Source: a phage
Assembly (NCBI GenBank): GCA_012646185.1
Contig: GCA_012646185.1_4706.1
Strand: one strand, 5' to 3'
DNA length: 64,000 bases
The notes beneath the pieces are model-generated. The model had not been told where the DNA came from, searched no databases, and worked only from the letters and a program-made list of their open reading frames with translations. This document shows positions 18,230 to 41,632 of the stretch, in pieces. Within the stretch, counting starts at the first letter, position 1. The number at the start of each line of letters is the position of its first letter. Made by a program: the position numbers and the translations under genes.

Positions 18230-21200
18230 TTACTTGTAGGCACCGCAATGGGCTTTGATGAGGAAAAGCACCGCTTGCATCGGTTTATTGAACTGTTGCC
18301 ATAACGTCAATGCCGGATGGAACAACCAATCTTCCAGACCAAGAACGATACCGTAGTTAACGACATTATTAACATCGTTCTCAACGTTGAGTTCGCTATC
18401 CAGGAATTTATCGATTGAACGCAGGGTCTGCATGGCGTTGTCAGCAATAAGCCAAGCTTCATGTGCTTCACGAGCCGCACGCAGCACTGCCTCCAGTTCG
18501 CTGATAGTAGCTACCGGTAATTCCTCACTGGTGAGGTCGTCAGAAACCGTAAACTGGCGATTGATACCGGTGTAGATCCACTGCATCAGTTTCGCTGCTT
18601 CCTCGTTCGGGTTGTTACGCGTTGTCGCATAAGTCGCGCTCACCTTCACGATATGCGTTTCACCAAGATACGCTTTGGAACCAACACCTTTACGATCGCT
18701 GTCTTTCCACGGTTGTACGGTAGCGACCATGAGCTTATCCCATTTCTGAATAGGAATACGCTTCAGACCAACAACCGATCCAGCGGATGTTTCGGACTGG
18801 TTGCTCTTCCGCACGTCGCTGAGCTCACGATCGATAGCAACGATTAATTCACGCGTCATGTTACCAAGCATTTTGATTTCACCCAACGCAGCGATGAGCT
18901 TCTTCACGTCAGTAACAGGTTCACCACCGATGGTAAGATGACGGATGAAACGTTTCAGAATAATCCGTTCTGCTGCTGGGTTACCACGACGCGCTTTAGC
19001 CAACGCTTGCTGTGTTTCGGCGAACAGCTTATCCCATGGAGCCGTAGCGGCGGTATAGTAACGATGGTTGGTTTCGATCCAGTTACCGATACGGTTGACC
19101 GCGCTCTTAACGGTATCCATGAATCCTTCCATCGCAATTTCGGTAGCTTCGACGTTACCCTGGAAGTTATCAGGACCGATTTCGCGTGCCGCTACCAGAA
19201 TACCTTCCACCGCACTCACCGCATGACGACCGATAGCCAGATTTCGCTGTGCTTCTTCAGCACGCTCAACGAATTCCACTACCGCAGGATCGTCAACGAT
19301 TTCCGCCTCGGCAACAGCACGCGTACCCGCATCACCTTCCAGCGTTTCGATAGTGACAACCGGATCGTTTTCACCGGCAACATCCTGATACTCTTCCTGT
19401 TTGAGATCGCCGTTATCAGCCGCTGCGACAGCGGTGAGTATACGGACGGTAACATCACCGAGTTCTTTTGCAGCGAATCCGTAAACGGTGCATGCTGTTT
19501 TTGCAAAGTTCATTAGAATGCGTGTACGTTTAACGATGTAACCAACGCCGTAGTCACTACCGCTATTATCGATGTCACGGATTAACTGCTCAGCCGTTTC
19601 TTGAAGGATAGATACTGACTTCAAGAGATCGTCTTCAAACAGTTTCTTCGACACCTCAACCAACATATCAGCATTGATGTTGGGTGGGGTTTTGTCGCCC
19701 TGTTGTTTCATCTCGCTTAATTCATCGCGGAACTTACTGATTCCATCCAAAGCGGCACTGGCGGTATGTCCGAACGCGGCAACTCCTGGCATTGTTGTTG
19801 CTGACAACATATCCGAATCGGCGTTTGGACTTTCGCCTTCTTTAAGATCCTTCAGCTGGTCGAAGAACTTGCGAGATGCTTCAGCGATACGTTTGCTGTC
19901 TTTCACCGCGTTTACGATTTTATCGACGGATTTAGCGTCGTTTGCAAGCAGCGTATCGAGTTTGTTCCATTCGACACCGACTTTCGTCGCATCCTTAGTA
20001 TCGCTTGGCGGAGGAAGCAGTTTTGTCACCGGAGTCGTGCGTTGTTCTTTGGTCAGCTTGTTGGCCTTCTCTTCGATTTTTTTCTTGTTAACACCAAAGA
20101 GATTTTTCAAACGCGCCACGAGGGCTTTTAAGAACTTCGCGACCGCTTCGTAAACCGATTTCAGAATCTGTTTAAAGCGACCCGGCTGCTTTTCCCCGTC
20201 TTCCAGATTGAGATCGCTGTTCAGTGCGACATCAAGCTGTTTGTACGATTCCATGATGTATTCGTCTTTGATTTCAGGACGAATCTCGAAGCTTTCCATC
20301 GGACCTTCAGCCGGACGGAATTCCATTTTCAGTTCGCCTTGCAGGGTAGGGTCGACAATAGCGATAGCTTCACCCTGACCATCAGCGTTAAAGCGTTCAG
20401 CGTAACGAGTACGGCGAACAATAACGCTCTTATCCCCATCAAGACGACGCACCACCATGGTGCCAGGAATGTACGGTTGTTCTGTTTCAATGACGGTTAC
20501 ATCTGTTTCACCCTCACCGAGAATAACAGATGCACGCTGTTCGACAACAGGAACATCTAATACACCACGGGCTTCCAGCTCTTGATGGATTTCGAACGAC
20601 TCTTGTTTCAGATCTTCATCTTCTTCGTTTTCGTCGTCTTCATCATCGTCACCTTTGGTGTTTTCATCATCCTTGGTGGTTGTGTCGTCGGTGGCACCAG
20701 CGTCAGCGTCGGTGTTAGCAGGTTCTTCGGACGCAGGTTCGGTGGTGTTGTCCTCCGTGGACGACCCGTCAGTGTTATCGACATCAACATCACCTTGCAG
20801 TTCTGTTTCCTGAGCAACTGCTTCGGCTTTCTGCTCGCCGGTATTACCATCATTAGCGTCGACAACAGGTTGTTCGTCAGCGACGGTATCTTCAACCTTT
20901 TCTACTTTCTCCACGACACGTTTAATCACGGTGACTTTGATGGGTTCTTCCGTTGTTTTGGTTTCTGACGTCACCTCGGCTGCCGCAGCCGCTGTTTCAG
21001 CAACAGGTTCTGCTTTTTCCGGTTCGACGACATTACCTTTAACACCTTCGGTGGTTTCTGCAGGTTGCGCTGCCTGTTCGATTTGCGCCGGATTGGTTGG
21101 ATCGATGGCGTTAGCCGCATCCTGAATCTTGTTCTTCAGGTTGTCGCGGTCAGCGTTAACGGTCGGGTCGTTGGTCACTTTCGGTGCCGGTGTTTCGGTC

Positions 21201-21616
21201 GGTGCGTTTGCCGGATACGGGTTCTTCGGCTCTTCGCCAGGTGCGGTCGGTACCGCGATCAGAACGAACGGTTGAACATCGTTACCGTCTTCCATGGTTA
21301 CGCCACCGTTGCTCGGTGTGAAACGAATTCGTAAACTACCATCAATAGGACGGGTCACAATAACAGCACGTACGACATCCTCACCGTTCTCATCCGTGCT
21401 ACGAATCACACGAACAGCGTCATCAACGGTAGCCCCTTCCTCGAGCGTATCTGATTCGATCGTCGCTTCGATGCTGTCTGGCCGTGCCGCTGTAGGTAAT
21501 GCGATCACTTGCTCTTCTTTATCAGTAGAAAGCGTTGCTTTGACTTCGATAGGTGTATCGCCGCTTTCCAGGTTAAGATGCGACTTACGCATCAGATCAG
21601 CTAACGATTTTTTCAT
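18230..21616 (-). CDS. large acidic virion-type protein (1128 aa)
   Basis: N-terminal about 330 aa are D/E/T-rich low complexity; contains ESFE-type motifs (LKQESFEIHQ, GPMESFEIRPEIKDEYIMESYKQL) shared with the downstream paralog array. Confidence 0.8.
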   Translation of the reverse strand: MKKSLADLMRKSHLNLESGDTPIEVKATLSTDKEEQVIALPTAARPDSIEATIESDTLEEGATVDDAVRVIRSTDENGEDVVRAVIVTRPIDGSLRIRFTPSNGGVTMEDGNDVQPFVLIAVPTAPGEEPKNPYPANAPTETPAPKVTNDPTVNADRDNLKNKIQDAANAIDPTNPAQIEQAAQPAETTEGVKGNVVEPEKAEPVAETAAAAAEVTSETKTTEEPIKVTVIKRVVEKVEKVEDTVADEQPVVDANDGNTGEQKAEAVAQETELQGDVDVDNTDGSSTEDNTTEPASEEPANTDADAGATDDTTTKDDENTKGDDDEDDENEEDEDLKQESFEIHQELEARGVLDVPVVEQRASVILGEGETDVTVIETEQPYIPGTMVVRRLDGDKSVIVRRTRYAERFNADGQGEAIAIVDPTLQGELKMEFRPAEGPMESFEIRPEIKDEYIMESYKQLDVALNSDLNLEDGEKQPGRFKQILKSVYEAVAKFLKALVARLKNLFGVNKKKIEEKANKLTKEQRTTPVTKLLPPPSDTKDATKVGVEWNKLDTLLANDAKSVDKIVNAVKDSKRIAEASRKFFDQLKDLKEGESPNADSDMLSATTMPGVAAFGHTASAALDGISKFRDELSEMKQQGDKTPPNINADMLVEVSKKLFEDDLLKSVSILQETAEQLIRDIDNSGSDYGVGYIVKRTRILMNFAKTACTVYGFAAKELGDVTVRILTAVAAADNGDLKQEEYQDVAGENDPVVTIETLEGDAGTRAVAEAEIVDDPAVVEFVERAEEAQRNLAIGRHAVSAVEGILVAAREIGPDNFQGNVEATEIAMEGFMDTVKSAVNRIGNWIETNHRYYTAATAPWDKLFAETQQALAKARRGNPAAERIILKRFIRHLTIGGEPVTDVKKLIAALGEIKMLGNMTRELIVAIDRELSDVRKSNQSETSAGSVVGLKRIPIQKWDKLMVATVQPWKDSDRKGVGSKAYLGETHIVKVSATYATTRNNPNEEAAKLMQWIYTGINRQFTVSDDLTSEELPVATISELEAVLRAAREAHEAWLIADNAMQTLRSIDKFLDSELNVENDVNNVVNYGIVLGLEDWLFHPALTLWQQFNKPMQAVLFLIKAHCGAYK

Positions 21617-21631
21617 AAAGCGTTATTCCTC

Positions 21632-22738
21632 TTAAAAGTAATATTTCAGCGCCTCGCGAGAGACATCAAGCATAGCCGCTGTTGAATTCGTAAAGAACTC
21701 GGCATAGCCCACAAGCGGCACCTTGATCCACGCGGTATACGCTGTAAGGTATCGAGAAAGGGCTACCATAGCATCATCAGAAGCAGTAGTAACTGACAAC
21801 TGACCTTGTTGACGATAAACGTCGTTAAGTTTTGCTTGTAGATTCCCTGCGATTTCGAGTAACTCGTTGGCGTACTTTTTGCGATGGTAACTAACCAGTA
21901 AATCAACACCCGTATTTACCGACTCGAGTAGCACACCAACTTGTTCTAATGTTGGCATTGTAACCACCATATCCCGTTCAACGGACGGTACATCCTGGAC
22001 TTCAAACCGTGCGGATTGAATGGCGAGGGACTGTTGAATTGAACCAGAACCTGAGGCGGTAACCTGATCGAGTCGTAGCGTACGGTTACCCAGTAACGTT
22101 ACGTTGACGAGTCTCGATTCGTTCAGCGTACTGTAGACTTTGTGCAATAACGTATACGCGTCACGGTTAATCACATCGATTAATGCGGTATCCGTCTGTT
22201 TTAAGATAATGTCGAGCGCTCTATCTAACGTATTAGCGAACTGCTTGAAATCATCACGGAACGACGAAGACAAGAGATATTCAGCGATTGCCAAATTCTG
22301 TTTGTATAACGTATTCCCAGTTGTGAAGTCGAATCCAAAACTGTTCCCATACCGTAGGTGCGGTGCCAGCGTTGACGAAGCTTCGAAGCTTTGCGCGATG
22401 GGTTTACGACCAACGGCTTTTGTGTAGTGACGGCGGATGTTGCTGAGTTCGAGCTGTAGTGCACGACTACGATCGATAAACCGGGCGATAAAAGCAGTGA
22501 TGTTCCGCAACGTTGTCCAGATCGCATCGATGATGGCTTTGATGATTTTCATCGCAAGCTGATTGTACGATTCCATCGTGAGGAGATCAGCACTTTCTGT
22601 GGTATAACCGGTTGCCGGAATACCGCCTGCTTGCTGATAAATAAGCTGGTGAATTTGTCGTTGCGTTGCTGTCTCTGGCACAGGTAATGTTTTTAACAAG
22701 CTTAACGCTTGAATCTGTCCGTCATAGGTCTGCAGCAT
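21632..22738 (-). CDS. paralog-family protein (about 368 aa), putative internal virion protein
   Basis: Start placed at ATG 22736-22738 (GAGGAA 7 nt upstream); contains MESYNQLAMKIIKAIIDAIW, which resembles the family motif. Confidence 0.7.
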   Translation of the reverse strand: MLQTYDGQIQALSLLKTLPVPETATQRQIHQLIYQQAGGIPATGYTTESADLLTMESYNQLAMKIIKAIIDAIWTTLRNITAFIARFIDRSRALQLELSNIRRHYTKAVGRKPIAQSFEASSTLAPHLRYGNSFGFDFTTGNTLYKQNLAIAEYLLSSSFRDDFKQFANTLDRALDIILKQTDTALIDVINRDAYTLLHKVYSTLNESRLVNVTLLGNRTLRLDQVTASGSGSIQQSLAIQSARFEVQDVPSVERDMVVTMPTLEQVGVLLESVNTGVDLLVSYHRKKYANELLEIAGNLQAKLNDVYRQQGQLSVTTASDDAMVALSRYLTAYTAWIKVPLVGYAEFFTNSTAAMLDVSREALKYYF

Positions 22739-24023
22739 TGCTGGTTTCCTCAAGTTCGAGATGCGCGTCAAGATAATCATTAAGACCGTCGATGACGTCG
22801 CAGACAGTTAACAGGAATCGGGCAAAAGCAACCGCTTGGAAACCGACGACGTTACGCGCGATACCCACACGTTGAACGATAGCGGATGCGGTGGTATCGT
22901 CGTTGTCCATCTGTTGTAGCAAACGCTCGTAAGGTTGAATCCATTCGTCCTGGTCGGCAAGGCTTGCTTCAAGACAACGTTTAAATTCCAACTGGCGTAG
23001 CGTAGACCATAACGTACTTAATGCGTTGATGATCGCGTTGGTTCCGTCGATAACGTCGTTTAACGGTAAGAAACGGAATCCGTCTTTTGCTGATTGGAAA
23101 GATACGGCTTCCCACACAACGCTGAATTGCGTTCCTGTTGCGTCTTCGATGTTGTGTACTTTAAGATAGGAAGCACCAACAGGTACGTCAACGACCAGAT
23201 CGTCTGTTCCGGTAGGCGTTAACGGCTTCTCGCATAACGCCTCGTTAATGACCTCGAGGATATTCTCCCAACAGGCTTCGTTTTCTGCAGCGATACCTTC
23301 TTTGTTATCCGCAGATGGTGCTTTTAGTAGCTGCATTAATAACGGATCGAGTTGACGATGCCATGCTGCGAGGATTCCTGTGTTCGTCACGATGTTTTCT
23401 GCGGTTTGTCGTAAATCAGCAATACTGCTTACGGCACCACCTTTCGGATGAAGATATCGCCAGTTGTAGGGAAAGTTCTCCCAGAATGCGTTATCTTCAT
23501 TAACATCGTATTCGGAAATAGTTTTCAACGCAGCCGCTTTCTTTAATAACGGCTTCACCTGACGAACGAATCGACGATAACAACGATTGCAGATATCGAT
23601 CGCGTAGCGGTATAACTCGTTCATGTAAAGCCATAACGCTCGGGTTGCTTCTTTTGCGGTCTTGTCAAAACTTTCCATGTTCAAGCTCATCCCGCTGGAA
23701 GTTTCCTCTTCCAGACCATCGATGATGTGGTTTGGGTCCATTCCCATTCCGGCTGCTGCGGTTGTTGCGATATGTTTGATGGTGCTGATATCGCGTTCCT
23801 CGACTGCAGCCATGTTTGGGACAATATCCAGCCTGAGTTTATTTAATGTTTGAAGGTGTTGTTCACCTTCTTTCATCATCGTGTTTGTTTCGTCGATTGA
23901 GTGAAACTGATTCTCAATATTACTGGCATCGAGAATGTTGCCAGCGATACCGAACGATTCTACAGGTTCATCATCAATCCCTTGAAACAACGATGTCATG
24001 GGTTGTTGTAACACGTTTTCCAT
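22722..24023 (-). CDS. paralog-family protein (433 aa), putative internal virion protein
   Basis: AGGAG 6 nt upstream; N-terminus SLFQGIDDEP and motif MESFDKTAKEATRALWLYM match the paralogs. Confidence 0.75.
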   Translation of the reverse strand: MENVLQQPMTSLFQGIDDEPVESFGIAGNILDASNIENQFHSIDETNTMMKEGEQHLQTLNKLRLDIVPNMAAVEERDISTIKHIATTAAAGMGMDPNHIIDGLEEETSSGMSLNMESFDKTAKEATRALWLYMNELYRYAIDICNRCYRRFVRQVKPLLKKAAALKTISEYDVNEDNAFWENFPYNWRYLHPKGGAVSSIADLRQTAENIVTNTGILAAWHRQLDPLLMQLLKAPSADNKEGIAAENEACWENILEVINEALCEKPLTPTGTDDLVVDVPVGASYLKVHNIEDATGTQFSVVWEAVSFQSAKDGFRFLPLNDVIDGTNAIINALSTLWSTLRQLEFKRCLEASLADQDEWIQPYERLLQQMDNDDTTASAIVQRVGIARNVVGFQAVAFARFLLTVCDVIDGLNDYLDAHLELEETSNAADL

Positions 24024-24130
24024 TTGGGACTCCTACGTAGGAAAATCTTGGCGGGTGATCATGTCCGCCATTTACCTTCTGAACCGTTGATTCAGAAGTC
24101 AAAAGATAACCGGATACCAACGTCATAAAA

Positions 24131-24162
24131 CCTTCCTCCAACCCAACAGGGAAGGAGGAAGG
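24131..24162. terminator. GC-rich two-tier hairpin
   Basis: CCTTCCTCC-AA-CCC-AACA-GGG-AA-GGAGGAAGG between 22722..24023 and 24173..25462. Confidence 0.6.
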
Positions 24163-24172
24163 GATATAGTGG

Positions 24173-25462
24173 TTATGCTTTTTCGGTTACAGCGTCGAAG
24201 TATTTCGCTGCAGCAAATACAGCATCTGCATATTGACGGTTAGCAACACGGAGGATCTTAGCTGCTAATACCGCGCTCAAGCGCGCCATTTCAGAAATGG
24301 CGCTTATATAAGGACGAACGGTTTCACGATCTGCTTCCGGTAGATTGTCGAGCATACCGTCCCATTTAGTTTTAATTTTCATGCCGTTGAGTTTAGCAGT
24401 ACGTTCGACAGTACTTGTTAAACTTTCTGTCTGGTGAAAATACACGGGGTCAACAACACGAAACGCGTTAAGATACGAAGTCAGTGCGGCTTTCAATTCG
24501 TCGTCGTTATTGAAAATGTTCGCGTTTTCAATACTACCGGTCGCGGTTTCTTCAACTTCGATCTGAATATTCTTCACGAGCGCGCAGGCCTTAATGGTAT
24601 CTTTCTCAGCCATAAGAGCGTCAAGACCTTTAACAACATATCGTTTCCCACCACTTTCTGGTATTTTGAGTCCTTTTAACGCAGGCTTGATGGCGTAAAT
24701 ATAATCGTCCAGAATATCGGCAAGTGTCGTCAAATCGGTTAGTTTATTAACTTTCTTGTTAATGTCGTCAGTTTGGAGTAGTAAAAAAGTGGATGCTTGT
24801 GTGGATGCCGCTAACTGCTCAATATGTTTACGAATCTCCAACGCGTTAACCGTTTTTGCGTTAGGGAACATGCTAATCATATTCCCGGTCGGTTTATTTA
24901 GTTGTTTGATGTGACGCTCGCCTTTATTTACAGCGGTTGCAACATCGGTAATTTTTTTATACGCTACCGCAAGGTTTTTGAAAAGCAGCTGAATCAGCTT
25001 ACATAACTGTTCAGCCATGTTCGCAATGATTACCCAGACTGCGTATAACGCTTGTGCTGCGCGTTCTTTAAAGCCTTCCAGTACAATAGCTTGCCCTTCC
25101 ACCAAACGATCGTCGGCTTGGAACATGTCTTCATCAGACATCCCCAGGTTAGCCGCTGACGTCGAAGCAATCTGACGGATAAGGGCGACGTCACTAGCAC
25201 GTGCTTCCGTGATCGTTGGTGCGATCATGTACGCGGTATCTTCCAGCGTTGCTGAGGTACGCACCGCGATTTCAGCCAGTTCGCTGGATTCATCGATTGT
25301 CTCGTCGGTACGTCGAATCACCAACTCAACTTCGTCCTCTTCGATTTCCGCGTTAGGATCATTTTGCTCCGTCGGAATTGCCGCAAGAAGATCTTCGGCG
25401 CTGAGCAATGCGAGTTCGAATGCGTTTTTATTGACGTTATCAAAAAGAGAGATGCGGGCCAT
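24173..25462 (-). CDS. paralog-family protein (429 aa), putative internal virion protein
   Basis: AAGGA upstream; N-terminus ISLFDNVNKN and block APTITEARASDVALIR...RLVEGQAIVLEGFK align with 25472..26788. Confidence 0.8.
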   Translation of the reverse strand: MARISLFDNVNKNAFELALLSAEDLLAAIPTEQNDPNAEIEEDEVELVIRRTDETIDESSELAEIAVRTSATLEDTAYMIAPTITEARASDVALIRQIASTSAANLGMSDEDMFQADDRLVEGQAIVLEGFKERAAQALYAVWVIIANMAEQLCKLIQLLFKNLAVAYKKITDVATAVNKGERHIKQLNKPTGNMISMFPNAKTVNALEIRKHIEQLAASTQASTFLLLQTDDINKKVNKLTDLTTLADILDDYIYAIKPALKGLKIPESGGKRYVVKGLDALMAEKDTIKACALVKNIQIEVEETATGSIENANIFNNDDELKAALTSYLNAFRVVDPVYFHQTESLTSTVERTAKLNGMKIKTKWDGMLDNLPEADRETVRPYISAISEMARLSAVLAAKILRVANRQYADAVFAAAKYFDAVTEKA

Positions 25463-25471
25463 GTTAGTTCC

Positions 25472-26788
25472 TTAACCTTTTGTATAAGCTTTAACGAGAG
25501 TGTTGATAAATGAGGTCAATGCACGAAGATATTGGTAAGCGAATTGGTTTTCAATACGGTTCTCTTTACCGCAAAGCAGAATCGCACGCTTAACGAGCTT
25601 AGGATAGATCTCAACGTACGGTTGGTAGCTCGCATCAAAATTCTGCTCGTTGAAGCGTTTCATGGTGATTTCCTGGATGCGCTCCATGGTGCGAATTTTA
25701 TTACGAGAGAAGATCTCAGAGAAAGCGCGTCCGCGTTTTGTTACCATCAACAGATCTTTCGCGAACGTCAGTTGTCGAACGCTACGCAAATCGTCAGGTG
25801 TCGGCAGGACGTACGTTTCCGGATCACTATCCCATTCAACATCTTCAACGACAATATCCAAGTCGAGGTAACGTTTAACCGCATCGATGATATTGTCTTT
25901 TGACGCATCGAATTCTTTCAAGAAGACTGCGCCGTTGATGTAACGAATGCGTTTTCCGGAAACCGTTGGGGTGATAACGTCAGTACCTTCCACGGAACCG
26001 CGATTTTCCAGCGTCGATTTGACAGCGTTCAAGAAAGTCAGATAATCAACGGGAAGTTTTTCAACCTTATCTAAATGGAAGTCGATGATGTTTAACCCCA
26101 ACCCATCAATAACTGAATAACCGTCCGATTTAAGGAACATCTGATTGAAGGTATCGATGTTGCTTTTCAGCGCGTCTACACCACCAACGTTGTTACGGTT
26201 AGGGAAAAGTGTCCGCCACTCCGCTTTAAATGCAACTTCTTTATTTTCCTCGTATTTGCCTTTAGGCATTTGTTCGAGGGCTGCAACGGCTTTCTGAAAA
26301 TTGCGCGTCTCGTCGTAAACAAGACGGGTAAGCTTCTCGAAGGCTGCTGCCAGGGTCAGGGCAATATCAACAATGATATCCCAGATCTTTTTCATGGCTT
26401 TTACAACGGTGTCCTTAAACCCTTCAACAACCAAAGCTTCTCCAACCTCAACACGATCGGTTGGCGTCAGCAATGCTTCGGAGGGTAGACCCAGAGCAAT
26501 CGATGCGGATTCTTGCACGTTACGAACCAACGCAACATCACTGTAGTTAGCCGATTCGATAGTCGGAGCAACATCAAAACTGATTTCCCGTAATGCAGCA
26601 ACAGCAGGGAAAGCACGATCAAGTGCATCTTCATGTTCGTCGATTGTCGCCAAACGTAATTCAACGCCATCGGCATCGATGACATCGGCTGTAGGCTCCA
26701 CAGCAAGCGCCTCAGCAACAATAGGATCTTTTTCAAACGCCTCAAGGCTGATATCGCCTTGGGTCGCAAATAGCGGTATGTGTACCAT
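25472..26788 (-). CDS. paralog-family protein (about 438 aa), putative internal virion protein
   Basis: Start placed at ATG 26786-26788 (GGAG 8 nt upstream; MVHIPLFATQGD aligns with paralog N-termini); block APTIESANYSDVALVR...EALVVEGFK. Confidence 0.8.
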   Translation of the reverse strand: MVHIPLFATQGDISLEAFEKDPIVAEALAVEPTADVIDADGVELRLATIDEHEDALDRAFPAVAALREISFDVAPTIESANYSDVALVRNVQESASIALGLPSEALLTPTDRVEVGEALVVEGFKDTVVKAMKKIWDIIVDIALTLAAAFEKLTRLVYDETRNFQKAVAALEQMPKGKYEENKEVAFKAEWRTLFPNRNNVGGVDALKSNIDTFNQMFLKSDGYSVIDGLGLNIIDFHLDKVEKLPVDYLTFLNAVKSTLENRGSVEGTDVITPTVSGKRIRYINGAVFLKEFDASKDNIIDAVKRYLDLDIVVEDVEWDSDPETYVLPTPDDLRSVRQLTFAKDLLMVTKRGRAFSEIFSRNKIRTMERIQEITMKRFNEQNFDASYQPYVEIYPKLVKRAILLCGKENRIENQFAYQYLRALTSFINTLVKAYTKG

Positions 26789-26836
26789 GTGTTGTCTCCA
26801 GTAATGATTCAAAAGATAAACCTGAGCGGCATAGAA

Positions 26837-26890: not shown

Positions 26891-28213
26891 TTACTGCTGT
26901 GCTGCGTCAGCCGGTTTCTCAGCCGCCTGGCCGCCGTACTCTTTCAGCATTTTAGCAACGCCATCCAGGACAGCGTTACCTGCCTGAACACCGTATTTCA
27001 TCAGACCGGTCTGCGGGTTCACATAGCAGGAACGTGCGTCTTTCAGCGCAGACAGTACAGCTTGAACACGCTGTTTTTCCTGAGCGGAAACTTCGCCTTT
27101 CTTAGACAGATCGGCTTCCATATCGTCACCGAATTTAACAGCGTCTTTGAAGCCCTGGGATTTCTTACCGATGTTGCCTTTCAGCGCCAGCAGTTTGTCA
27201 GCCAGTGCTTCAACACCGCTAACCGCAGCAGCCAGCTGGTTCAGGGACAGGACGGTAGCTTCAACTTCTTTTGCTTCGCCGGAGCGTTCCCAGGTTACTT
27301 TACCATCATTGGCTTTGAAACCCCAACCTGCCGGGCCAGCAACGTCAGCAATCGCCGGAGCGTTCAGTTTATCAGCGTACTCGGTGTGAGACTTAGCAAT
27401 AACGGTACCAACGAATTTATCAGCACGATCGTCAGCAGCCTTCATTGCTTTCTCGAAGGTGTCGGCGATTTTGGTCGCGCTGGTAACCAGATCGTCGCCA
27501 CCGGTGTAGCCTGAAACACCGCTACCCAGTTTAACTTTGGTATTTTTAGCAGTGCCTTTACGCTTGGCGATCATTTCTTTCAGTTTAGCAGCACGCGCTT
27601 TCAGTTTGGTCGCGCCGTCGAAGATGCGATCCATGAACTTCACGAAGGTTTCCCAGGAAGTCTTCAGGAAGTTCTTGATGGTTGCCCACAGTTTCTGCCA
27701 CCATTTTTGTTCTTCCAGGAAGATCATGTTGGTTGCATCGTAGCGGGAAGCGGAACCACCGAAGCTTTCGAAGGACGGCATGGTTTCCGGCATTTTGAAA
27801 CCGATAGTACCACACAGACGTTTCAGATTACGCATGTGTTCCTGAGCGGTCTGTGCAGACATACCACCGTCTTTCAGGTAGCTTTCGGTTGCAACAACGG
27901 TTTCCGTCAGTTCATCCATGGCATCATCCATGGCTTCTGCGGTTTCGTCGTCTTTTGCAATTTCGATAACAACAGAATCAACCTGCTCGATATCACCACG
28001 AACTTCGATAGCCAGTTCGGTTTCAGCTGCGGTATCTTCAGCGATTTCAGCACGTTCGGTCAGTTCAGCCACAACGTTTTCATCCGCTGCTGCAGCATCA
28101 GCTGCCGGTTCTGCTTCAACGGTTGCCGCTGCATCCGGATCGATCTCAGCAGCCAGTTGAACCAGCTGTGCGTTAGATGGATTTGCGACAAGACGATCAA
28201 AAATAGAAGGCAT
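26891..28213 (-). CDS. highly expressed paralog-family protein (440 aa), putative abundant internal virion or scaffold-like protein
   Basis: Strong codon bias (antisense frames open: ORFs 27062..27514, 27707..28234); N-terminus MPSIFDRLV and SFESFGG...KLWATI match the family; Ala/Glu/Lys-rich. Confidence 0.8.
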   Translation of the reverse strand: MPSIFDRLVANPSNAQLVQLAAEIDPDAAATVEAEPAADAAAADENVVAELTERAEIAEDTAAETELAIEVRGDIEQVDSVVIEIAKDDETAEAMDDAMDELTETVVATESYLKDGGMSAQTAQEHMRNLKRLCGTIGFKMPETMPSFESFGGSASRYDATNMIFLEEQKWWQKLWATIKNFLKTSWETFVKFMDRIFDGATKLKARAAKLKEMIAKRKGTAKNTKVKLGSGVSGYTGGDDLVTSATKIADTFEKAMKAADDRADKFVGTVIAKSHTEYADKLNAPAIADVAGPAGWGFKANDGKVTWERSGEAKEVEATVLSLNQLAAAVSGVEALADKLLALKGNIGKKSQGFKDAVKFGDDMEADLSKKGEVSAQEKQRVQAVLSALKDARSCYVNPQTGLMKYGVQAGNAVLDGVAKMLKEYGGQAAEKPADAAQQ

Positions 28214-35152: not shown

Positions 35153-38100
35153 TTATCTTACGTTATTGCTGTTCTGCTGTTCGCTGAACCAACCGTACAC
35201 CTTGAGATCGGTACCGTATTTCAATGCGATATACGCATTCAGTGCGGCACAGAACAAAGACGCGAATGCCCATATCAGCGAAGGATCAACATCTTCCGTT
35301 ACCACCGGGAGAGTATTATCCGGTTCCCATGATGGAGAACTGTCCATGAACGTCGTGACCATTACTCGCCGTTGTTCTTCGGTGGTAAAGTCGCTATGAG
35401 GTTCCAACGCTTCTTTTGCCAGACGTCGATATTCGAACATATGCGTTGCTAAAGCCGATGAGTTACCAGATTCGCCTTCATAGTTCGGATCCACCGCATA
35501 ACAGAGTTCTGTTGAATCTAACAAAGCAACCGCCTGTGTGATGCTGTCGGCAGTGCCTGCACCATAGAGTTCGATAGACCGCGAAAGCTTCTCACAGAAC
35601 GCATCCAACGCGGCAGGATTGGACACCTGAAGGTCAAGGCCTAATGTCCACGGATAGTTACTGAATACACCCGTAAACCGCGGCATAACACCCAACAGAT
35701 GTTGTCCGATTACAGCACGGTTATAAACAGCCCGGTTATAGACTTGAAACGCAGCCTCCAAAGCTTGGTTATAATGACGACGAAGTTCGTCACGAGAGTT
35801 GCGGAACCTGTTTGCCGCAAGACTCGTGGCTGCGACGCTACAAACATCGTAATTGGTGGACGAGAGCACAGTTTCGTTAAGATCGAACGCTTCCTGTTTC
35901 AACGATCCGCTAACCGCTGCTGCTTCGCTGTTTGCTTTATCGACAACAGTACTCAAAGCGTTGATGTAACGTTTAGCTCGGACTTCCAGCCATTGTGCGA
36001 TGCCGAGAACATCCACAGCGGCTTTAGCAAGGTCACGCGCGTTCACGATTTCGTTCTTCAAGGCACCCAACCCTTTATTCTCAGGCGAAGAGGCTTGTTG
36101 ACGAATCATGCTGTTTAACATGGTAAGCAGATTATCCAACTCGTGCCCACTGACCTTGTTACGCGCATCGGTAATCGGCCCTTGCAGGAATTTACGGCAA
36201 CCATCGTTGTATCGAATCAGTTTATCCACATCGATAGATTCGTTCGTGGATTCCTTGAACTGATCCTTCAATTCTTCACGGTAGTCATGGATTTCACTTG
36301 CGAGATTATCGATAGTGATACCATCATGTCCAAGAAGAACTTTATTGAAGTTACCTTTCTCGAATGCCAGAGCAAGACCTTCACGAATCTTAGCGAGTTT
36401 ATCCTGATCAAGTTCACGACCGTTCGATAGCTCTTTCACTTCCGAGCTGATTAATGCCGAAACGTTACCCAGATTGTCGGTAACCCCTTTGAACGCTCCC
36501 GACCAGATCGTTCCTGCTTCAGCGTATTTCGCAATGGTCTGAATACCGACGGTGTGCAGCGACGCTAAACGTTTCTTCGTGCCTTCGGTAAGCAGAGCGT
36601 CTTTAGCTCGCGTAAGCTGGCTGTTATTAGCTTCCGCCTGCTGAATCGCTGCTTTCGCACTTCCATTACGCCAGCTCTTAACCAGCCAATCAACCAAACG
36701 TTTTAGGATGTTGACGGTATATTCCATCGTCCGCCGTAACGTTTCCCACGCGCTTTCTGCGGTATAGATGCCGTACCCTTCCATCTTCAACGCTTTCAAG
36801 CTTGTTTGACGTGCCAGCCATTCTACCGTTGCGGAACAAACGTTTACAAAGGCTTCCAGGTAGGTGTAATAGACGTCTGTTGCCGACGTTTCGTTGAACT
36901 TTGAATGCAGATAGAACTGATCGTAAAGTTCGTCGTCATCGCCGAAGGCATCATAGTTCCACAGTTCTGTATCACAACCTGTACCGCAGAAGACGTCAGC
37001 TGTCGTAAACTCTTTAAGCGCTTTAGCTGCATCATTCGTCAGGAATTTACCCGTTTCGACTACATCGTCGACATTAAGCTTGGGGAGTTCGTCGGTGACT
37101 GGCTCTTCCAACATCAGCATATTGAAGAATGTGCTGTACTTGTATCCGAGCCATTTTGGATAACTGCTTTCAGGGATCGTAGACAACGGCTTGATTTTCT
37201 TGGCTTCAGCCAATGTGTCTTTTGCGACCTGATATTGGTTTTCCCCAGCCTTGACGCGACGTAATGCTTTTTCTTCCAACTGCTTAAGCTTGGCATGGCG
37301 TGCTTGTGCTGGAGCTTCAACAAGTTTTTGTACTGACCGCATTGCAGAAATCGCTTCTTTTAATACGATCATCGGCATACGAACTTTGCCGTCGTCGAAA
37401 CTAAGAGCGCGAGCGACACGTTTACTTACGACAGGCTTATCATGGATATTTCGTTCCACCCATGATTTGTTTGCGTAAGTTTGAGCGATCTGCTGTTGGA
37501 TATTTTCAAGGTATTTCCAGCCGTTGGAAGCTTTGTTATCCAGAAGCGGATTCGGTCCCTTCTTATCGAAAAGTTTCAGAATCGGACCAAAGAAACCTTC
37601 CTGTACGAGTTCGATACGCGTGTATCCGTCAGCCGCTTCGATTTCTTCTTGGGTTTTGTCCCAGAGCTGTTCACTACGGACAGCAGTAGCTGTTTCAGAT
37701 ACCGACATAACAAGCTCGGCAACAACTTCAGCACAGGTCAGTACGGTACGCACGCATTGCACTAGCATACGCTGGTAAACGATACGTGCGTTTTGTAGAC
37801 GTGCGATAACCGCTAAATAACCGATATTGTCAAGACGTTCGTCGGCTTGAGCAGAGTCGACACGTTCTATCAGTTGTTTAACCAGCGCGGCTGTTTCCGG
37901 ATAATCGTTCACGACGTCACGCATAATTCGTGATGCGAAAACCGCGGTACCTAAAACGTTAAGAAGTGTTTTACCGTCCCATTCTTTTGGTGTCGCTACC
38001 GATTCGGTAGGGATGAGATTTCCCGCTTGATCGAAGTATGGCATAAGGACATTGATATCCGTAGACGGTACTGCGGTGATTGCGTTGTACTCTTCATCCG

Positions 38101-38758
38101 CACCATCGTTGCCAGACGGCTGTAATGCAAGTGCTTGTTCAAGGATTTTGCGGTCAACAGCATAAAGCGCCGACAGAGCCTGTGTTACCGCAACCAGATC
38201 AACGATCGGCGACCAGAGCTGTGCGAGCTTACCTTCGTATTTCTGTACAGCGATAGCAAGGTCTTCTTTTACGTCAGGATGATTGATTAAACCACCCAGC
38301 GCTTCATGGATTGCAGAAAAACGTTCAGAATGTGCTTGAGTTAATGCAACAAAATCGTCAACGTACGATGCATTTTCTTCAAGGCGTGCAAGTTCCTGCT
38401 CCAGAAGATCTTTTACTTGCGTGGCGGATGCGTTTCTCAGCTGTTCCCCGATAATCGCGATGGCTTTATCGACAACACGACAAGCTTCATTGAAGCCTGT
38501 CGTTGAAGGTAACTCGGTCCATAATGCCAGCGGCTTACCTTCCATTGCGTCAGGAAGGGAATATGACAACATTGCTAGTTGTTGACGTGATACCTGTTTG
38601 TCACGATGTAACGTTTCTTTCAACGCCAGAAGCTCATCAAGACCCACACTGCTAGGGATCGTGGGATGTGATACGGCGTTGATATTTTCTGTCAATGACT
38701 CAAGAACCAATAAACCATTTTCAGCGGAAGATAACCCTGCTTTAAGGTATTTGTTCAT
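35153..38758 (-). CDS. very large helical protein (1201 aa) sharing ELVQEGF motif with 38840..41632
   Basis: Long ORF; ACGGAG 7 nt upstream; internal RIELVQEGFFGPILKLF; hydrophobic C-terminal segment LIWAFASLFCAALNAYIALKY; a tape-measure role is not excluded. Confidence 0.8.
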   Translation of the reverse strand: MNKYLKAGLSSAENGLLVLESLTENINAVSHPTIPSSVGLDELLALKETLHRDKQVSRQQLAMLSYSLPDAMEGKPLALWTELPSTTGFNEACRVVDKAIAIIGEQLRNASATQVKDLLEQELARLEENASYVDDFVALTQAHSERFSAIHEALGGLINHPDVKEDLAIAVQKYEGKLAQLWSPIVDLVAVTQALSALYAVDRKILEQALALQPSGNDGADEEYNAITAVPSTDINVLMPYFDQAGNLIPTESVATPKEWDGKTLLNVLGTAVFASRIMRDVVNDYPETAALVKQLIERVDSAQADERLDNIGYLAVIARLQNARIVYQRMLVQCVRTVLTCAEVVAELVMSVSETATAVRSEQLWDKTQEEIEAADGYTRIELVQEGFFGPILKLFDKKGPNPLLDNKASNGWKYLENIQQQIAQTYANKSWVERNIHDKPVVSKRVARALSFDDGKVRMPMIVLKEAISAMRSVQKLVEAPAQARHAKLKQLEEKALRRVKAGENQYQVAKDTLAEAKKIKPLSTIPESSYPKWLGYKYSTFFNMLMLEEPVTDELPKLNVDDVVETGKFLTNDAAKALKEFTTADVFCGTGCDTELWNYDAFGDDDELYDQFYLHSKFNETSATDVYYTYLEAFVNVCSATVEWLARQTSLKALKMEGYGIYTAESAWETLRRTMEYTVNILKRLVDWLVKSWRNGSAKAAIQQAEANNSQLTRAKDALLTEGTKKRLASLHTVGIQTIAKYAEAGTIWSGAFKGVTDNLGNVSALISSEVKELSNGRELDQDKLAKIREGLALAFEKGNFNKVLLGHDGITIDNLASEIHDYREELKDQFKESTNESIDVDKLIRYNDGCRKFLQGPITDARNKVSGHELDNLLTMLNSMIRQQASSPENKGLGALKNEIVNARDLAKAAVDVLGIAQWLEVRAKRYINALSTVVDKANSEAAAVSGSLKQEAFDLNETVLSSTNYDVCSVAATSLAANRFRNSRDELRRHYNQALEAAFQVYNRAVYNRAVIGQHLLGVMPRFTGVFSNYPWTLGLDLQVSNPAALDAFCEKLSRSIELYGAGTADSITQAVALLDSTELCYAVDPNYEGESGNSSALATHMFEYRRLAKEALEPHSDFTTEEQRRVMVTTFMDSSPSWEPDNTLPVVTEDVDPSLIWAFASLFCAALNAYIALKYGTDLKVYGWFSEQQNSNNVR

Positions 38759-38773
38759 AAAACACTCCGTTGA

Positions 38774-38804
38774 CCTAGGTGGAGGCCAATAACCTCCACC
38801 TAGG
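38774..38804. terminator. perfect 12-bp stem hairpin
   Basis: CCTAGGTGGAGG-CCAATAA-CCTCCACCTAGG between 38840..41632 and 35153..38758. Confidence 0.65.
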
Positions 38805-38839
38805 GTTGAACAACGCGTACGGTTATACGGTACGCACGA

Positions 38840-41632
38840 TTACGCTAATTTACCGAAACCGGCCTTCTGTAGTTTCTCGTTGATCAGTTTTGCTTCAGCG
38901 AAAACATAATCACGATACGCAGTGACTAATCCGTCCACCCGTGAACGCAAGGCTTCTTCGAAGCTATACCACGCAGCGATTTCACGAATCTGTGCGTTGA
39001 TATAATCAACGGTTGAGCGAAGCTCGGTTGCGTTTTCTTGCGGAATGGCTTTCACCTGGCGAGCAACGTCATTTAAACGACGGAACTGTGTTTCGATTTC
39101 TTTAAACTTACTGTCAGCAAGTTTGCTGAATTCGTCACCGGAACGGGTAAATAACAGATAGCTGTTGCCGTCAAGTGCGGTCGCTAACTGCTGAAGTACG
39201 TTGGTGTCCGGATACACAGGAGTACCGCTTTGCAATACTTTCTCACCGAATTCCGCGAAGTCCTTCGGCGGTAAGTGTGCAGACGTTGTCAATTCGTTGA
39301 AACGGAAAGTCAGCGAACTATCATACAACATCCGGTACGCTTCCATACCCTGTTTCATGGTACCGGCCAGGTTAGCCAGACGCGGAGCAATCTCGCCTTC
39401 TTTAGCGCGTTTCTGGTCTTCTAACGCCCCTTCGAGTTCTTTACACTGGTCGTTCAGATACACGATACGATCGGGACGCAGACGACGCATCTCACGAAGA
39501 ATGGTATCCAGCTTACCTTCCTGGAAATAACCTAACGTTAAAGACGTACACGCTTGCTGAAGACGATCGAAGACCGGTAAGGTTACCATCTCCTTACGGA
39601 TACCATCAACAATCGCAGAAACAGCCGAAAGTTTCTGTTCTGTAGTCAATGGAACATCAGAGGCCGACTTGCTGGGCGCACCAACAACGTTACGCATTGC
39701 GTCGGTATCCTCGGTTTTATCAACCTCTTTACGAACATGCTCATCAGGAACATAAACGTTAGCATTACGTTTCGCCTGCTTGATAGCATCGCTGGCCGCT
39801 TTTTCGGTGGCCGCTACGCTATCGGCACGTTTCTTCAAGAGTTCAATAATCCAGAGCACCAGACGACGAATCGCAGTGTAGGCTGTCGTGATGATGACGC
39901 CGATAACAGCCATCTTCATGATACCGAACGATTCCATGGTCGGCTCTAACGCTTGGTCTGGCATATACCGTTCACGCAGTTCCAGATAGATCTGCTCATC
40001 TGGTTTGCTGACCTCACCACGATGCGAAGTACGATAGATGGCTTCGTCAATCTCAACAAGATCTTTGCGGGCCTGGCGATCGGATTCTGTTAAGTAAGCA
40101 CAACCGGATACATCATCTTCGAAGCTTAAGAATTTGAAAAAGTCACTGACGTCGATCTTGATCTTCTTCGCTTCATTGTCAACGTTAATGAAATCCGTTT
40201 TACGAGACTGCTGTTGAATCTTAATATCCTTTATCGGTTTAAGCGCTTTGTCTTTTAATGCCTGCATGATCTGTTTCCAGCTGGCATCGCGTTCAAGAAC
40301 AAGGAAATAGTTCTTGAGTTCGAATGCGCGATAGCGGACAACAAGTTGTTCTACCTGGACATGAGCGAGTTGTACGTCCATCAGCCAACGCGACAGCGCA
40401 GAAACCAAACGGCTATACGCAAGCAGCGTCTGGTACGTCAGCTTCATGTGTTTCTCGTAGAGCTCAATGTCTCCGCCCTGGATGTCGGCTGTCGGGTTCA
40501 TTTCCTTCGTTGCTTTGAAGACTTGTTCGGCTTCATTCAGCATTTGCTCAAACTTGACTTCATTGAACGCGTTGAATGGTTCGGCCAGTTCGTTCATCCG
40601 ATCGTGTAGTTCGCGAACCCAAGCTTCTTTGTGATTACGAATGACCGCATCAGCGTGGAGTTCGGTTTGATGTTTCTGTACCCATTCTTCAATGATATCC
40701 GCAGCTGCAACAACACCTGTGTTGTCAGAAATCAATGGGATGACGTTAGAGAGCGTACCCGCACATGCTGGCGTTTTCCAATGATCATTAAGTGTGTTGC
40801 GGAACGTAATGATGTCCGTCATTGACGTAGTGATATCGAGGAACGTGTTACCGTTACGACTCATGCTTGTGATGTTTGTGGCAAACGTCTTTTGTTGTTC
40901 TACAACGAATGGAATCAACGCCATCAACCAATCAGCAATACACTGTGCTTTTTCTTTCAGGTTTTTGTCGGCGATTTCTTTGAGATTAATTGCGCCGCCG
41001 TACCCCGCAAGTTCGTTATACACATCGTTCAAGGTCATCTGCGCATCAAGCATTTCTTTGAAACGCGGATAATCTTCCCCTAACGCATCGATGATATCCT
41101 GGATAACGTCGTCGGTTGTAGCGATAAATTTCTTCGTGTCGACTTTAGATTTCCAGATTATTTTCACCGCTTCTTTCATAACGGTGAACATGATCTGCCA
41201 AATACGCTTAATAAGTTCCCAGACTTTCTTCGCACCATCGACAAACAGTTTAGAGATCTTGGCAACGAATCCTTCCTGCACTAACTCAACGCCGTTACGT
41301 GATGGGATTTCCGTGAAGAAAGCATCCGGCAGTTGTTTCGGGAATGCGTCACCAAGACGCATACGCAGTTCCGGTACATCAGCACGAGAAATACCGCGTG
41401 TTACTAATTGTTCGTGAAGACGAACGTTTTCTTCACCAGCAGCCACGAATTCATTAACGTCGAAGGAGACCATTGCTTCCTGATCTTCGGTGGTAACAAC
41501 GCTTGAACCGTCGCTGGTTTGGATGTCTTCGTCAGGGAACGCCATGAGCATACCGTGACGCATTTCAACCACTCCGTAATCGGTTGCTAAACCGAATTCG
41601 TTGTGGTCGGGAGTAATAACTGGGATACTCAT
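38840..41632 (-). CDS. large helical protein (930 aa), paralog-family member
   Basis: ATGA overlap with upstream gene; NGVELVQEGFVAKISKLF...KKVWELIKRIW near residue 115 matches the family motif. Confidence 0.8.
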   Translation of the reverse strand: MSIPVITPDHNEFGLATDYGVVEMRHGMLMAFPDEDIQTSDGSSVVTTEDQEAMVSFDVNEFVAAGEENVRLHEQLVTRGISRADVPELRMRLGDAFPKQLPDAFFTEIPSRNGVELVQEGFVAKISKLFVDGAKKVWELIKRIWQIMFTVMKEAVKIIWKSKVDTKKFIATTDDVIQDIIDALGEDYPRFKEMLDAQMTLNDVYNELAGYGGAINLKEIADKNLKEKAQCIADWLMALIPFVVEQQKTFATNITSMSRNGNTFLDITTSMTDIITFRNTLNDHWKTPACAGTLSNVIPLISDNTGVVAAADIIEEWVQKHQTELHADAVIRNHKEAWVRELHDRMNELAEPFNAFNEVKFEQMLNEAEQVFKATKEMNPTADIQGGDIELYEKHMKLTYQTLLAYSRLVSALSRWLMDVQLAHVQVEQLVVRYRAFELKNYFLVLERDASWKQIMQALKDKALKPIKDIKIQQQSRKTDFINVDNEAKKIKIDVSDFFKFLSFEDDVSGCAYLTESDRQARKDLVEIDEAIYRTSHRGEVSKPDEQIYLELRERYMPDQALEPTMESFGIMKMAVIGVIITTAYTAIRRLVLWIIELLKKRADSVAATEKAASDAIKQAKRNANVYVPDEHVRKEVDKTEDTDAMRNVVGAPSKSASDVPLTTEQKLSAVSAIVDGIRKEMVTLPVFDRLQQACTSLTLGYFQEGKLDTILREMRRLRPDRIVYLNDQCKELEGALEDQKRAKEGEIAPRLANLAGTMKQGMEAYRMLYDSSLTFRFNELTTSAHLPPKDFAEFGEKVLQSGTPVYPDTNVLQQLATALDGNSYLLFTRSGDEFSKLADSKFKEIETQFRRLNDVARQVKAIPQENATELRSTVDYINAQIREIAAWYSFEEALRSRVDGLVTAYRDYVFAEAKLINEKLQKAGFGKLA

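Follow-up and report, generated by a model that had tools for sequence, protein, structure and literature searches.

The prohead protease gp245 of Salmonella phage SPN3US cuts its substrates (gp45, gp47, gp50, gp53, gp54, gp75, gp81 and gp225) after glutamate at A-X-E (PMC10052503, PMC5694885). By mass spectrometry (MS), the cut has been placed at AAQE125|GWKETLKDLFERF in gp53 (mature start GWKETLKDLF) and at VAQE124|SYGA and VARE137|SLWDDIKAFLQRIFDWL (start SLWDDIK) in gp54; further sites are VALE|SWANAGKVGLVVLIM in gp47 (start SW), which is followed by a transmembrane helix, and VASE20|SIGFQD in gp45 (PMC10052503). Proteins in the slot of gp47 are cut at SQE-122 in phiKZ (gp86), at SQE-113 in 201phi2-1 (gp148) and at ALE-111 in SPN3US itself (PMC5694885). 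Here we analyse a stretch of phage DNA of 64,000 nucleotides (GenBank assembly GCA_012646185.1, contig GCA_012646185.1_4706.1; the whole stretch is called the window below), in which a short motif built around E-[GS]-[FY] recurs in eight proteins encoded between positions 18230 and 41632. The motif is, with good probability, the recognition and cleavage site of a head-maturation protease of the Peptidase_S80 family, to which phiKZ gp175 and SPN3US gp245 belong. This is a known kind of system (phiKZ, 201phi2-1, SPN3US and, more distantly, T4), newly delineated in the lineage of Escherichia phage vB_EcoM_Goslar.

The window is 94.4% identical in nucleotide sequence, across 92% of its length, to Goslar, a nucleus-forming, phiKZ-like jumbo phage (Chimalliviridae), and the coordinates 18230-41632 hold the orthologues of Goslar gp053-gp065. 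The structure of Goslar has been described in a preprint (10.64898/2026.04.21.720040, the structure preprint below) without an analysis of proteolysis, and the function of the injected proteins was called there a key unsolved mystery; a search of the literature found no cleavage map for Goslar-like phages. The gene order in the window corresponds one-to-one, in mirror orientation, to SPN3US gp44-gp54: the 436-amino acid (aa) protein equals gp45 (BLASTP 2e-23), the 146-aa protein gp46, the 997-aa protein gp48, the 412-aa protein gp49 and the 368-aa protein gp50 (5e-17), with the 930-aa protein in the slot of gp47, while the order ends with gp51, gp52 and then the paralogues of the window in place of gp53/gp54. 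The carriers of the motif are five tandem paralogues and three very large proteins:

26891..28213, minus strand: 440-aa internal head protein, orthologue of gp058; PF12699 at 9e-19, above the cut-off; the dominant PF12699 protein
25472..26812, minus strand: 446-aa PF12699-like paralogue, orthologue of gp057, with an acidic N-terminal region of 130 residues
24173..25462, minus strand: 429-aa paralogue with the PF12699 fold (AlphaFold, according to the structure preprint), orthologue of gp056
22722..24023, minus strand: 433-aa paralogue, orthologue of gp055
21632..22780, minus strand: 382-aa paralogue, orthologue of gp054; PF12699 at 1e-4, below the cut-off
18230..21616, minus strand: 1128-aa multi-module head protein, orthologue of gp053
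35153..38758, minus strand: 1201-aa protein, orthologue of gp064, paralogue of the 930-aa protein
38840..41632, minus strand: 930-aa vertex-binding-complex protein, orthologue of gp065, in the slot of SPN3US gp47 and phiKZ gp86 (synteny and structure preprint)

The five tandem genes are assigned to PF12699, the phiKZ-like internal head proteins, as judged from Pfam, from alignment and from the fold reported in the structure preprint. The curated Pfam threshold is 27 bits; the 440-aa protein exceeds it with 68.3, the 446-aa and 382-aa proteins stay below it with 23.7 and 22.1, and the Pfam scan gave no match for the 429-, 433- and 1128-aa proteins. According to the structure preprint, the PF12699 domain is present in Goslar gp53 (as a prediction) and gp58, gp54-57 adopt the PF12699 fold in AlphaFold models, the virion of Goslar (not of the window phage) holds ~2150 copies of gp58, ~330 of gp53 and 50-70 of gp54-57, gp058 is injected into the host, and gp65 is the homologue of phiKZ gp86 in the vertex complex. 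Pairwise identity among the five paralogues is 15-19%, and the glutamate of the motif and a tryptophan 11-12 residues further on are among their few invariant columns. Compared with the Goslar annotation, the longest open reading frames (ORFs) of the 382-aa and 446-aa proteins begin 14 and 8 codons further upstream, the former overlapping the end of the previous gene by 59 nucleotides (nt) and the latter opening with TTG; because of the shorter Goslar annotation, site numbering in these two proteins is uncertain.

In its fuller form the motif reads x-[M/Q/V/L]-E|[G/S/(A)]-[F/Y], where "|" marks the predicted cut; for counting it was scored as E-[GS]-[FY]. Copies are found in the 1128-aa protein at LKQE339|SF, GPME441|SF, YIME456|SY and IAME830|GF, in the 930-aa protein at LVQE120|GFVAKISKLF and PTME567|SF, and in the 1201-aa protein at LVQE387|GFFGPILKLF and LKME660|GY, with a variant at LKQE956|AF. 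The paralogues carry VATE110|SY and PSFE149|SF (440 aa), LVVE130|GFKDTVVKAMKKIW (446 aa), IVLE129|GFKERAAQ (429 aa), EPVE22|SF and LNME117|SFDKTAKE (433 aa) and LTME70|SYNQLAMK (382 aa). An earlier note on this DNA, made from the sequence alone, had proposed that the three large proteins and the tandem paralogues share an N-terminal motif serving as a targeting or processing signal. The strings it quoted from the 1128-, 930- and 1201-aa proteins are all present at the positions given there, and the motif is indeed common to both groups, although "N-terminal" describes it only in the paralogues and at one site of the 930-aa protein, all other sites being internal. Four copies, IAME830|GF, PTME567|SF, LKME660|GY and LKQE956|AF, had escaped that note.

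The repetition of the motif is real and non-random. Each protein was shuffled on its own 500 times with its composition kept, and E[GS][FY] occurs 15 times in the eight proteins against 2.7 +/- 1.5 expected, a number attained in none of the 500 shuffles (0/500); for [MLVQF]E[GS][FY] the figures are 14 and 0.8. The three large proteins alone hold 8 copies against 1.6 expected (again 0/500), and the residue before the glutamate is M, L, V, Q or F in all 8 of them, against 0.4 expected, so that the shuffled-protein control proposed in the earlier note came out above chance. In the other 49 ORFs of the window there is no enrichment (10 copies against 8.3 expected). Genome-wide in Goslar, the cluster holds 15 against 2.2 expected and the remaining genome 55 against 38. 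All 15 sites of the window are kept in Goslar, even in proteins that are just 77-85% identical. A 46-column hidden Markov model (HMM) built from four paralogues, searched against the 57 ORFs, returned the three large proteins and the fifth paralogue as its best four matches outside the training set; the HMM search suggested earlier thus ranked the large proteins on top, albeit with weak scores (E 0.001 to 0.37).

One argument for proteolysis comes from homology to mapped sites. In an alignment of eight sequences (SPN3US gp53 and gp54, the five paralogues and the C-terminal third of the 1128-aa protein), in which the window proteins show at most 22% identity to SPN3US gp53, E125 of gp53 is one of just two invariant columns, and this column, which also contains E137 of gp54, is the glutamate of the motif in all but one of the five paralogues and, in the 1128-aa protein, E830. 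The exception is the 440-aa paralogue, which places FLEE168|QK (FLEE168|QKWW) on the maturation site of gp53. Within the window, SPN3US gp54 matches best at residues 826-914 of the 1128-aa protein, which puts ARE137|SLW on AME830|GF. E120 of the 930-aa protein (LVQE-120) corresponds by synteny to the cuts at 111, 122 and 113 in gp47, gp86 and gp148, and the gp45 site ASE20|SIGFQD corresponds to LTME16|AIKFQDG, at the end of a short propeptide, in one further protein of the window:

42103..43413, minus strand: 436-aa head protein, orthologue of gp067 and homologue of SPN3US gp45, outside 18230-41632, belonging to the same substrate set

The likeness to the SPN3US sites extends into the residues after the cut in E|GFKDTVVKAMKKIW, E|SFDKTAKE, E|SFGIMKMAVIGVIITT and E|AIKFQDG. 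As an observation apart, the 436-aa protein has a zincin-like HExxH motif, AAIMLHEIGHAF, followed by hydrophobic segments, with AAIILHEVGHVY in SPN3US gp45; a Pfam scan of this protein gave no match, and its sequence raises the possibility that the head contains a second peptidase, dependent on metal.

The motif also behaves as a boundary within the large proteins. The regions upstream of it are strongly acidic (isoelectric point, pI, 4.0-4.6), whereas those downstream are mostly neutral to basic and in most cases open with an amphipathic (tryptophan-containing) or a hydrophobic helix. The 1128-aa protein is divided into an acidic part (1-339, pI 4.05), a segment 340-441, a central part 457-830 and a PF12699-like C-terminal part 831-1128; the 930-aa protein has an acidic N-terminus of 120 residues before LVQE120|GF, and its PTME567|SF precedes a transmembrane-like helix; in the 1201-aa protein 387 acidic residues are followed by LVQE387|GFF, a module, LKME660|GY, and a C-terminal part with LKQE956|AF. 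Among the segments delimited by the motif, BLASTP showed a mutual resemblance only for the propeptide regions of three paralogues, and when the segments of the large proteins were scanned one by one with Pfam and PHROG, no family reached significance. Comparison of the paralogue profile with the large proteins by hhalign aligned the motif alone, at low probability, and gave no evidence of domain homology to the 930-aa protein; such a result is in keeping with a short linear site. There is a weak mutual similarity between the N-termini of the 930- and 1201-aa proteins. In a tblastn search of 50,697 phage records, relatives of the three large proteins and of the 440-aa paralogue came essentially from Goslar only, with the exception of the module of the 1201-aa protein; a homologue search with the 930-aa protein returned only Goslar-like sequences at 84% identity or more, and no distant ones, among the best 120 of 208 matches, and a related-locus search with the 997-aa protein returned near-identical contigs only.

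36779..37597, minus strand: cargo module, residues 388-660 of the 1201-aa protein, with a copy of the motif at either edge

This part of the 1201-aa protein (residues ~373-662, between E387 and E660) is the only one that has relatives outside the Goslar lineage. Between near-identical phages it is gained or lost, as a module of 265 residues, by an in-frame insertion or deletion (indel) of ~795 nt (window 36788-37588, minus strand), both junctions of which lie within a few codons of E387 and E660. It is present in the window and in IMG/VR contig 3300045988_173921, and precisely this segment is missing from Goslar and from IMG/VR 3300011560_000001 (by IMG/VR locus, present in L004 and absent from L005). 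Goslar gp064 reads LVQE|GFFDPT-KME|GYGIY at this position, and a distant gp064-type homologue, 31% identical, has a single site there, YTTE|GAWEAF. In Klebsiella phage Eowyn the module is free-standing, with a leader of 17 residues, and elsewhere in jumbo phages it occurs in tandem or fused. Nearly all of the 21 module copies (in 17 proteins of other jumbo phages), internal tandem copies included, are preceded by [VI]-S-[TM]-E|G-[LIF]. A homologue search with the module alone returned no match, and phmmer with representatives of the module found 14 relatives. Its AlphaFold model (predicted local distance difference test, pLDDT, 77; predicted template modelling score, pTM, 0.77) is mostly of low confidence over the first ~25 residues (below 50 at 1-12 and 18-25), and the only fold matches identified by Foldseek are uncharacterised, internal head and virion structural proteins of jumbo phages; Foldseek gave no significant match in the PDB, where SipD/IpaD (type III secretion tip) at E ~3 is not meaningful. 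In other jumbo phages we also observed a conserved domain of ~150 residues (GGTxxGPKWR...ITPYQEGCYS) fused N- or C-terminally to the module, with protease-type sites between them (loci L002 4462-6879 and L009/L010 3317-4840; proteins P0126, P0128, P0129, P0136 and P0137); this domain looks like a nucleoside 2-deoxyribosyltransferase, a resemblance taken from its sequence.

The protease itself has been identified in Goslar, where gp212 is a Peptidase_S80 (Pfam PF20034, 1.3e-78) that matches the PHROG family 'head maturation protease' (5e-58). The gene lies outside the 64-kb window, and from the ~94% identity of the two phages the window phage is expected to have it. Gp212 (269 aa) carries SPTME198|GFQK where SPN3US gp245 auto-cleaves (AQE-203 of 263 aa), and in Goslar virions peptides of its catalytic domain are present while those downstream of E198 are absent. 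Two other virion proteins have the motif near the N-terminus: gp192, a protein of the vertex complex (ALSME26|GF), and gp209, an abundant virion protein (EPIVE15|GF). In Goslar NC_048170, outside the window, these genes are:

203033-203839: gp212, the Peptidase_S80
231758-232600: gp192, vertex-complex protein
205366-206889: gp209, abundant virion protein

Outside the cluster, M-E-[GS]-[FY] is found in Goslar only in the protease, gp192, a helicase and a DNA polymerase, the copies in the latter two being probably due to chance. The count of "at least eight genes" in the earlier note was right and probably too low, as the gp45 homologue of the window and, in Goslar, gp192, gp209 and the protease carry similar sites.

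Peptide data from Goslar virions are public (Table S4 of the structure preprint, semi-specific search); the peptide list was covered alphabetically up to ~'EI', and the comparison draws on only a handful of peptides for each protein. At two places a terminus at glutamate is seen directly. The gp067 semi-tryptic peptide AIKFQDGSLFKEMTEFFR starts right after LTME (LTME|AIKF), as had been predicted beforehand from the gp45 site of SPN3US, and the gp064 peptide ANSEAAAVSGTLKQE ends before AFDL (LKQE|AFDL), with a score of 108 and an area of 14,100 versus 5,460 for the tryptic form; P3 of this MS-supported LKQE|AF site is K. For several proteins the region upstream of the motif is depleted. The areas of peptides from the N-terminal region are 4,880 and 9,180 versus a protein total of 10.8 million in gp058, 1,130 (EGEQHLQTLNK) versus a total of 237,000 in gp055, 0, 0 and 2,420 versus 224,000 for a C-terminal peptide in gp064, and 451 versus 14,400 for a C-terminal peptide in gp065. 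In gp056 the peptide ASDIALIR, from the propeptide, is absent, against an area of 31,600 for AALTSYLNAFR from the mature part, and in gp057 the N-terminal peptides 21-45 and 59-67 were not detected while a C-terminal peptide was. In the structure (PDB 36za), the sequence of the gp65 chain starts at K134, 14 residues past the cut predicted at LVQE119|GF (Goslar numbering). This chain, C7, is named 'Inner-peripheral baseplate spoke gp32', its sequence being that of gp65 from K134 to the C-terminus (801 residues, 55 copies), so that by sequence the label looks wrong. Taken together, mapped SPN3US sites, module boundaries, the motif in the S80 protease and the partial data on Goslar virions lend good support to the suggestion of the earlier note that the motif is a processing signal.

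A different sequence is probably used in the major capsid protein, which aligns with the cut of SPN3US gp75 at ATE-130:

6535..8757, minus strand: major capsid protein, 740 aa, orthologue of gp041

In Goslar virions its propeptide peptides have an area of 0 versus 570,000 and 84,400 for mature peptides, and density for its first 157 residues was not seen by cryo-electron microscopy (cryo-EM; structure preprint), which indicates that ~150-157 N-terminal residues are likely removed by a cut in GCE150|SEE|LVQL, before S158. The same E[GS][FY] site was considered here and rejected, as the first ordered residues, S158-Y159, are preceded by L157 and there is no copy of the motif; the cut is likely to be GCE150|S or SEE153|L, a few residues upstream of S158. 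It may be added that a stop-free ORF of 766 aa (6460-8760, plus strand) runs antisense across the entire capsid gene and, being longer than that gene, would lead a gene caller that prefers the longest ORF to the wrong strand.

Several observations weigh against the motif being a protease site, or against its being cut in full. The MS and structural data come from Goslar and not from the window phage, and peptides that would begin at the [G/S][F/Y] sites (among the predicted post-cut starts is GYGIYTAESAWETLR) fall outside the alphabetical range of the peptide list that was covered. Other ragged peptides (after F, I, V and L) occur in the semi-specific search, and one semi-tryptic peptide taken alone is therefore weak evidence. 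In gp057 the peptide 98-112, upstream of VVE122|GF, is present with an area of 15,300, so this piece is either retained or the maturation cut lies further upstream. Peptides from all regions of gp053 were found in virions, including its acidic N-terminal region (areas 11,000 and 79,000); EIRPEIKDEYIMESYK spans E456 (score 108; areas 17,600 and 9,960) and EIGPDNFQGNVEATEIAMEGFMDTVK spans E827, which is E830 in the window (score 36; area 541), so that at least E456 is not fully cut. Finally, the S/A/G/T-X-E rule at P3 is followed by just 5 of the 15 sites (P3 = K, P, I, A, T, P, N, V, V, A, S, V, K, V, T), the other positions being M (7), Q (3), V or L at P2, G, S or A at P1' and F or Y at P2'; either the enzyme of the Goslar lineage recognises other positions, or selection acts on the new N-terminus as such. 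The module homologues of other phages fit the rule, with S at P3 in 17 of 21 copies. It was also observed that EIRPEIKDEYIMESYK (gp053 residues 442-459; window ~20240-20290) begins two residues past the cut predicted at E441|SF and may derive from SFEIRPEIK... as a fragment, or be the sign of a different cut.

Some of these points could be accommodated if the motif were a conserved structural or functional element, such as the first turn of an N-terminal helix, amphipathic or hydrophobic, that serves assembly within the head or contact with a membrane once ejected, with any cleavage taking place elsewhere upstream. A conserved amphipathic helix does follow the motif, with its tryptophan 11-12 residues on, and the P1'-P4' residues of the module family (G-[LIF]-[FLW]-D) recur across phages with different proteases; the uncleaved peptides spanning two gp053 sites, the gp057 peptide and the departure from the known P3 rule of the S80 family point the same way. 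However, the invariant column is the glutamate and not the helix, and it coincides with the mapped SPN3US cuts; the proteins in which the motif is found include unrelated folds, namely gp65, gp192, gp209 and the tail at the C-terminus of the protease; and the next 10-25 residues are missing from the gp65 chain or modelled mostly with low confidence in the module, which suggests a flexible segment rather than a fixed start of a helix. With two glutamate termini observed as well, we regard such an element as an unlikely explanation of the motif, though one compatible with a protease site. Still less likely is common ancestry alone, whereby the large proteins would be PF12699-type fusions, and duplication would have passed on the motif as the signature of a family. 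The five paralogues do fall in PF12699 or look like its members, as does the C-terminal domain of the 1128-aa protein, the predicted fold of the module matches internal head and virion proteins of jumbo phages, and the N-termini of the 930- and 1201-aa proteins are weakly alike. Yet, the motif apart, no similarity was detected between the paralogue profile and either the 930-aa protein or the large proteins in their N-terminal and central parts, the role of gp65 in the vertex complex is solved and is a different one, its fold is already unrelated to PF12699, the protease itself carries the motif, and paralogues with 15-19% identity keep the motif column though nearly everything else has changed.

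Recurrence by chance of a short pattern in long glutamate-rich proteins is hardly credible. It is true that the pattern was defined after inspection of these same proteins, that they are acidic and long, and that a slight excess is also seen elsewhere in the Goslar genome (55 versus 38), but chance is refuted by the shuffles (15 versus 2.7 and 8 versus 1.6 expected, 0/500) together with positional conservation: all 15 sites are conserved in Goslar, and sites stand at indel and domain boundaries. A signal for nucleus import or for secretion was set aside, as the proteins are internal to the head by MS and cryo-EM and the motif stands at mapped protease positions.

Cleavage by the S80 protease thus remains our preferred explanation, in which a common protease, and not a common fold, accounts for the presence of the motif in all these proteins. 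The acidic N-terminal regions (pI ~4.0-4.6) of the precursors of internal head and ejection proteins would bring them into the assembling prohead, where the protease would cut after glutamate to leave neutral-to-basic mature domains that start with G/S-F/Y followed by a helix, a step that homology to the mapped SPN3US sites supports and for which two related Goslar sites give direct evidence; the acidic pieces would then be mostly cleared from the head, in keeping with the semi-quantitative data for several proteins. Targeting, the other half of the signal proposed in the earlier note, is suggested by analogy with the capsid-targeting sequences (CTS) of T4 and with SPN3US gp47 (PMC5694885, PMC9026906) and, if real, would lie in the acidic region upstream of the motif and not in the motif. 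The three large proteins may be viewed as polyprotein-like carriers of several modules with sites between them; a module between two sites would be packaged along with its carrier and could afterwards be released, the 265-residue module offering a natural example. We infer cleavage at each E|[GS][FY] copy, and the release of the inserted module, from these lines of evidence. A bolder version, tentative and on balance rather doubtful, is that the cut unmasks conserved N-termini (G/S-F/Y and then an amphipathic, tryptophan-rich or transmembrane-like helix) on many packaged proteins, which after ejection would insert into or help organise the membrane of the early phage infection vesicle, the shelter of the chimallivirus genome. 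The large proteins would in that case be carriers of cassettes, gaining or losing ejected effectors at protease sites in the manner of the 265-residue module, and the P2/P1'/P2' signature a shift of protease specificity within the Goslar lineage.

Some further observations concern the surroundings of the locus and the distribution of these phages. The 845-aa protein (353-2890, minus strand) has a low-complexity start rich in Q, Y, P and N, and the 480-aa protein (4761-6203, minus strand) has highly charged repeats in tandem (RRRDEEAKRKHDEF...) and, at the C-terminus, a hydrophobic helix. The 930-aa protein recurs in identical form on a 236-kb contig in an E. coli assembly, and near-identical copies are present on 235-247-kb contigs in many assemblies of E. 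coli, Salmonella and Shigella isolates, which makes Goslar-like phages common passengers of such assemblies (carrier state or contamination).

The heads of nucleus-forming jumbo phages hold internal proteins in thousands of copies, which are injected together with the DNA. A map of sites gives the true mature ends and masses, and with them a basis for copy-number estimates, for fitting unassigned cryo-EM density and for the right expression constructs; it predicts that several giant head proteins are sets of smaller released modules, and it provides a testable rule by which foreign cargo would be placed between two copies of the motif for the heads of E. coli jumbo phages. The departure from (S/A/G/T)-X-E, if confirmed, would widen the known specificity of the S80 family.

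Compared with SPN3US, the window has the same gene neighbourhood, one-to-one, and cleavage is likewise predicted after glutamate. PF12699 proteins with long (110-150 residue) acidic N-terminal propeptides occur in both, mature ends G-W or S-L-W in SPN3US stand against predicted ends G-F, S-F and S-Y in the window, and the protein in the gp47 slot has a hydrophobic helix after the cut. The protease of SPN3US trims its own C-terminus, as that of Goslar probably does at the equivalent position, and in both lineages the propeptide fragments appear to be only partly cleared. On the other hand, in SPN3US alanine is required at P3 (A-X-E) and valine is favoured at P4, whereas P3 varies in the window, with M or Q in most cases at P2; PF12699 paralogues number two in SPN3US, against five in the window and a sixth domain fused in the 1128-aa protein; the substrates of SPN3US are reported to lose N-terminal propeptides only, whereas the large proteins of the window have internal sites; and the SPN3US cleavage map is experimental, that of the window mostly inferred. 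The proteases of phiKZ (gp175) and 201phi2-1 (gp268), which belong to the same family (MEROPS S80; consensus S/A/G-X-E and S/A/G/T-X-E), offer a similar picture. The PF12699 operon of the window is syntenic with phiKZ gp86-gp97, gp86 and gp148 have SQE-122 and SQE-113 (sites known via later papers) where the 930-aa protein has LVQE-120, and several redundant sites lie within the propeptides. The differences are that their P3 rule fails in 10 of the 15 window sites and that, unlike phiKZ, Goslar shows no inner body by cryo-EM (structure preprint).

In T4, the CTS of IPI-III and Alt is an N-terminal region that carries cargo into the prohead, as the acidic regions here may do by analogy, and a related serine protease, gp21, removes the signal by cutting after glutamate at (L/I)-X-E. 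Unrelated cargo can be loaded in T4 by fusion to the signal, of which the two-site module described here resembles a natural version; however, the CTS has 10-20 residues, against 70-390 residues in the acidic upstream regions of the window, and the consensus differs. Viral polyproteins, cut by a protease that the virus encodes, likewise combine several modules in one frame with short protease sites between them, and gain or lose cassettes at those sites, but here the arrangement is proposed inside the prohead of a DNA phage, for packaged cargo and not for replication proteins, with cleavage apparently incomplete at some sites. The general picture drawn from phiKZ, 201phi2-1, SPN3US and T4 is unchanged, and what the Goslar lineage adds to it is a variant consensus, internal sites in very large proteins and a cassette flanked by two sites.

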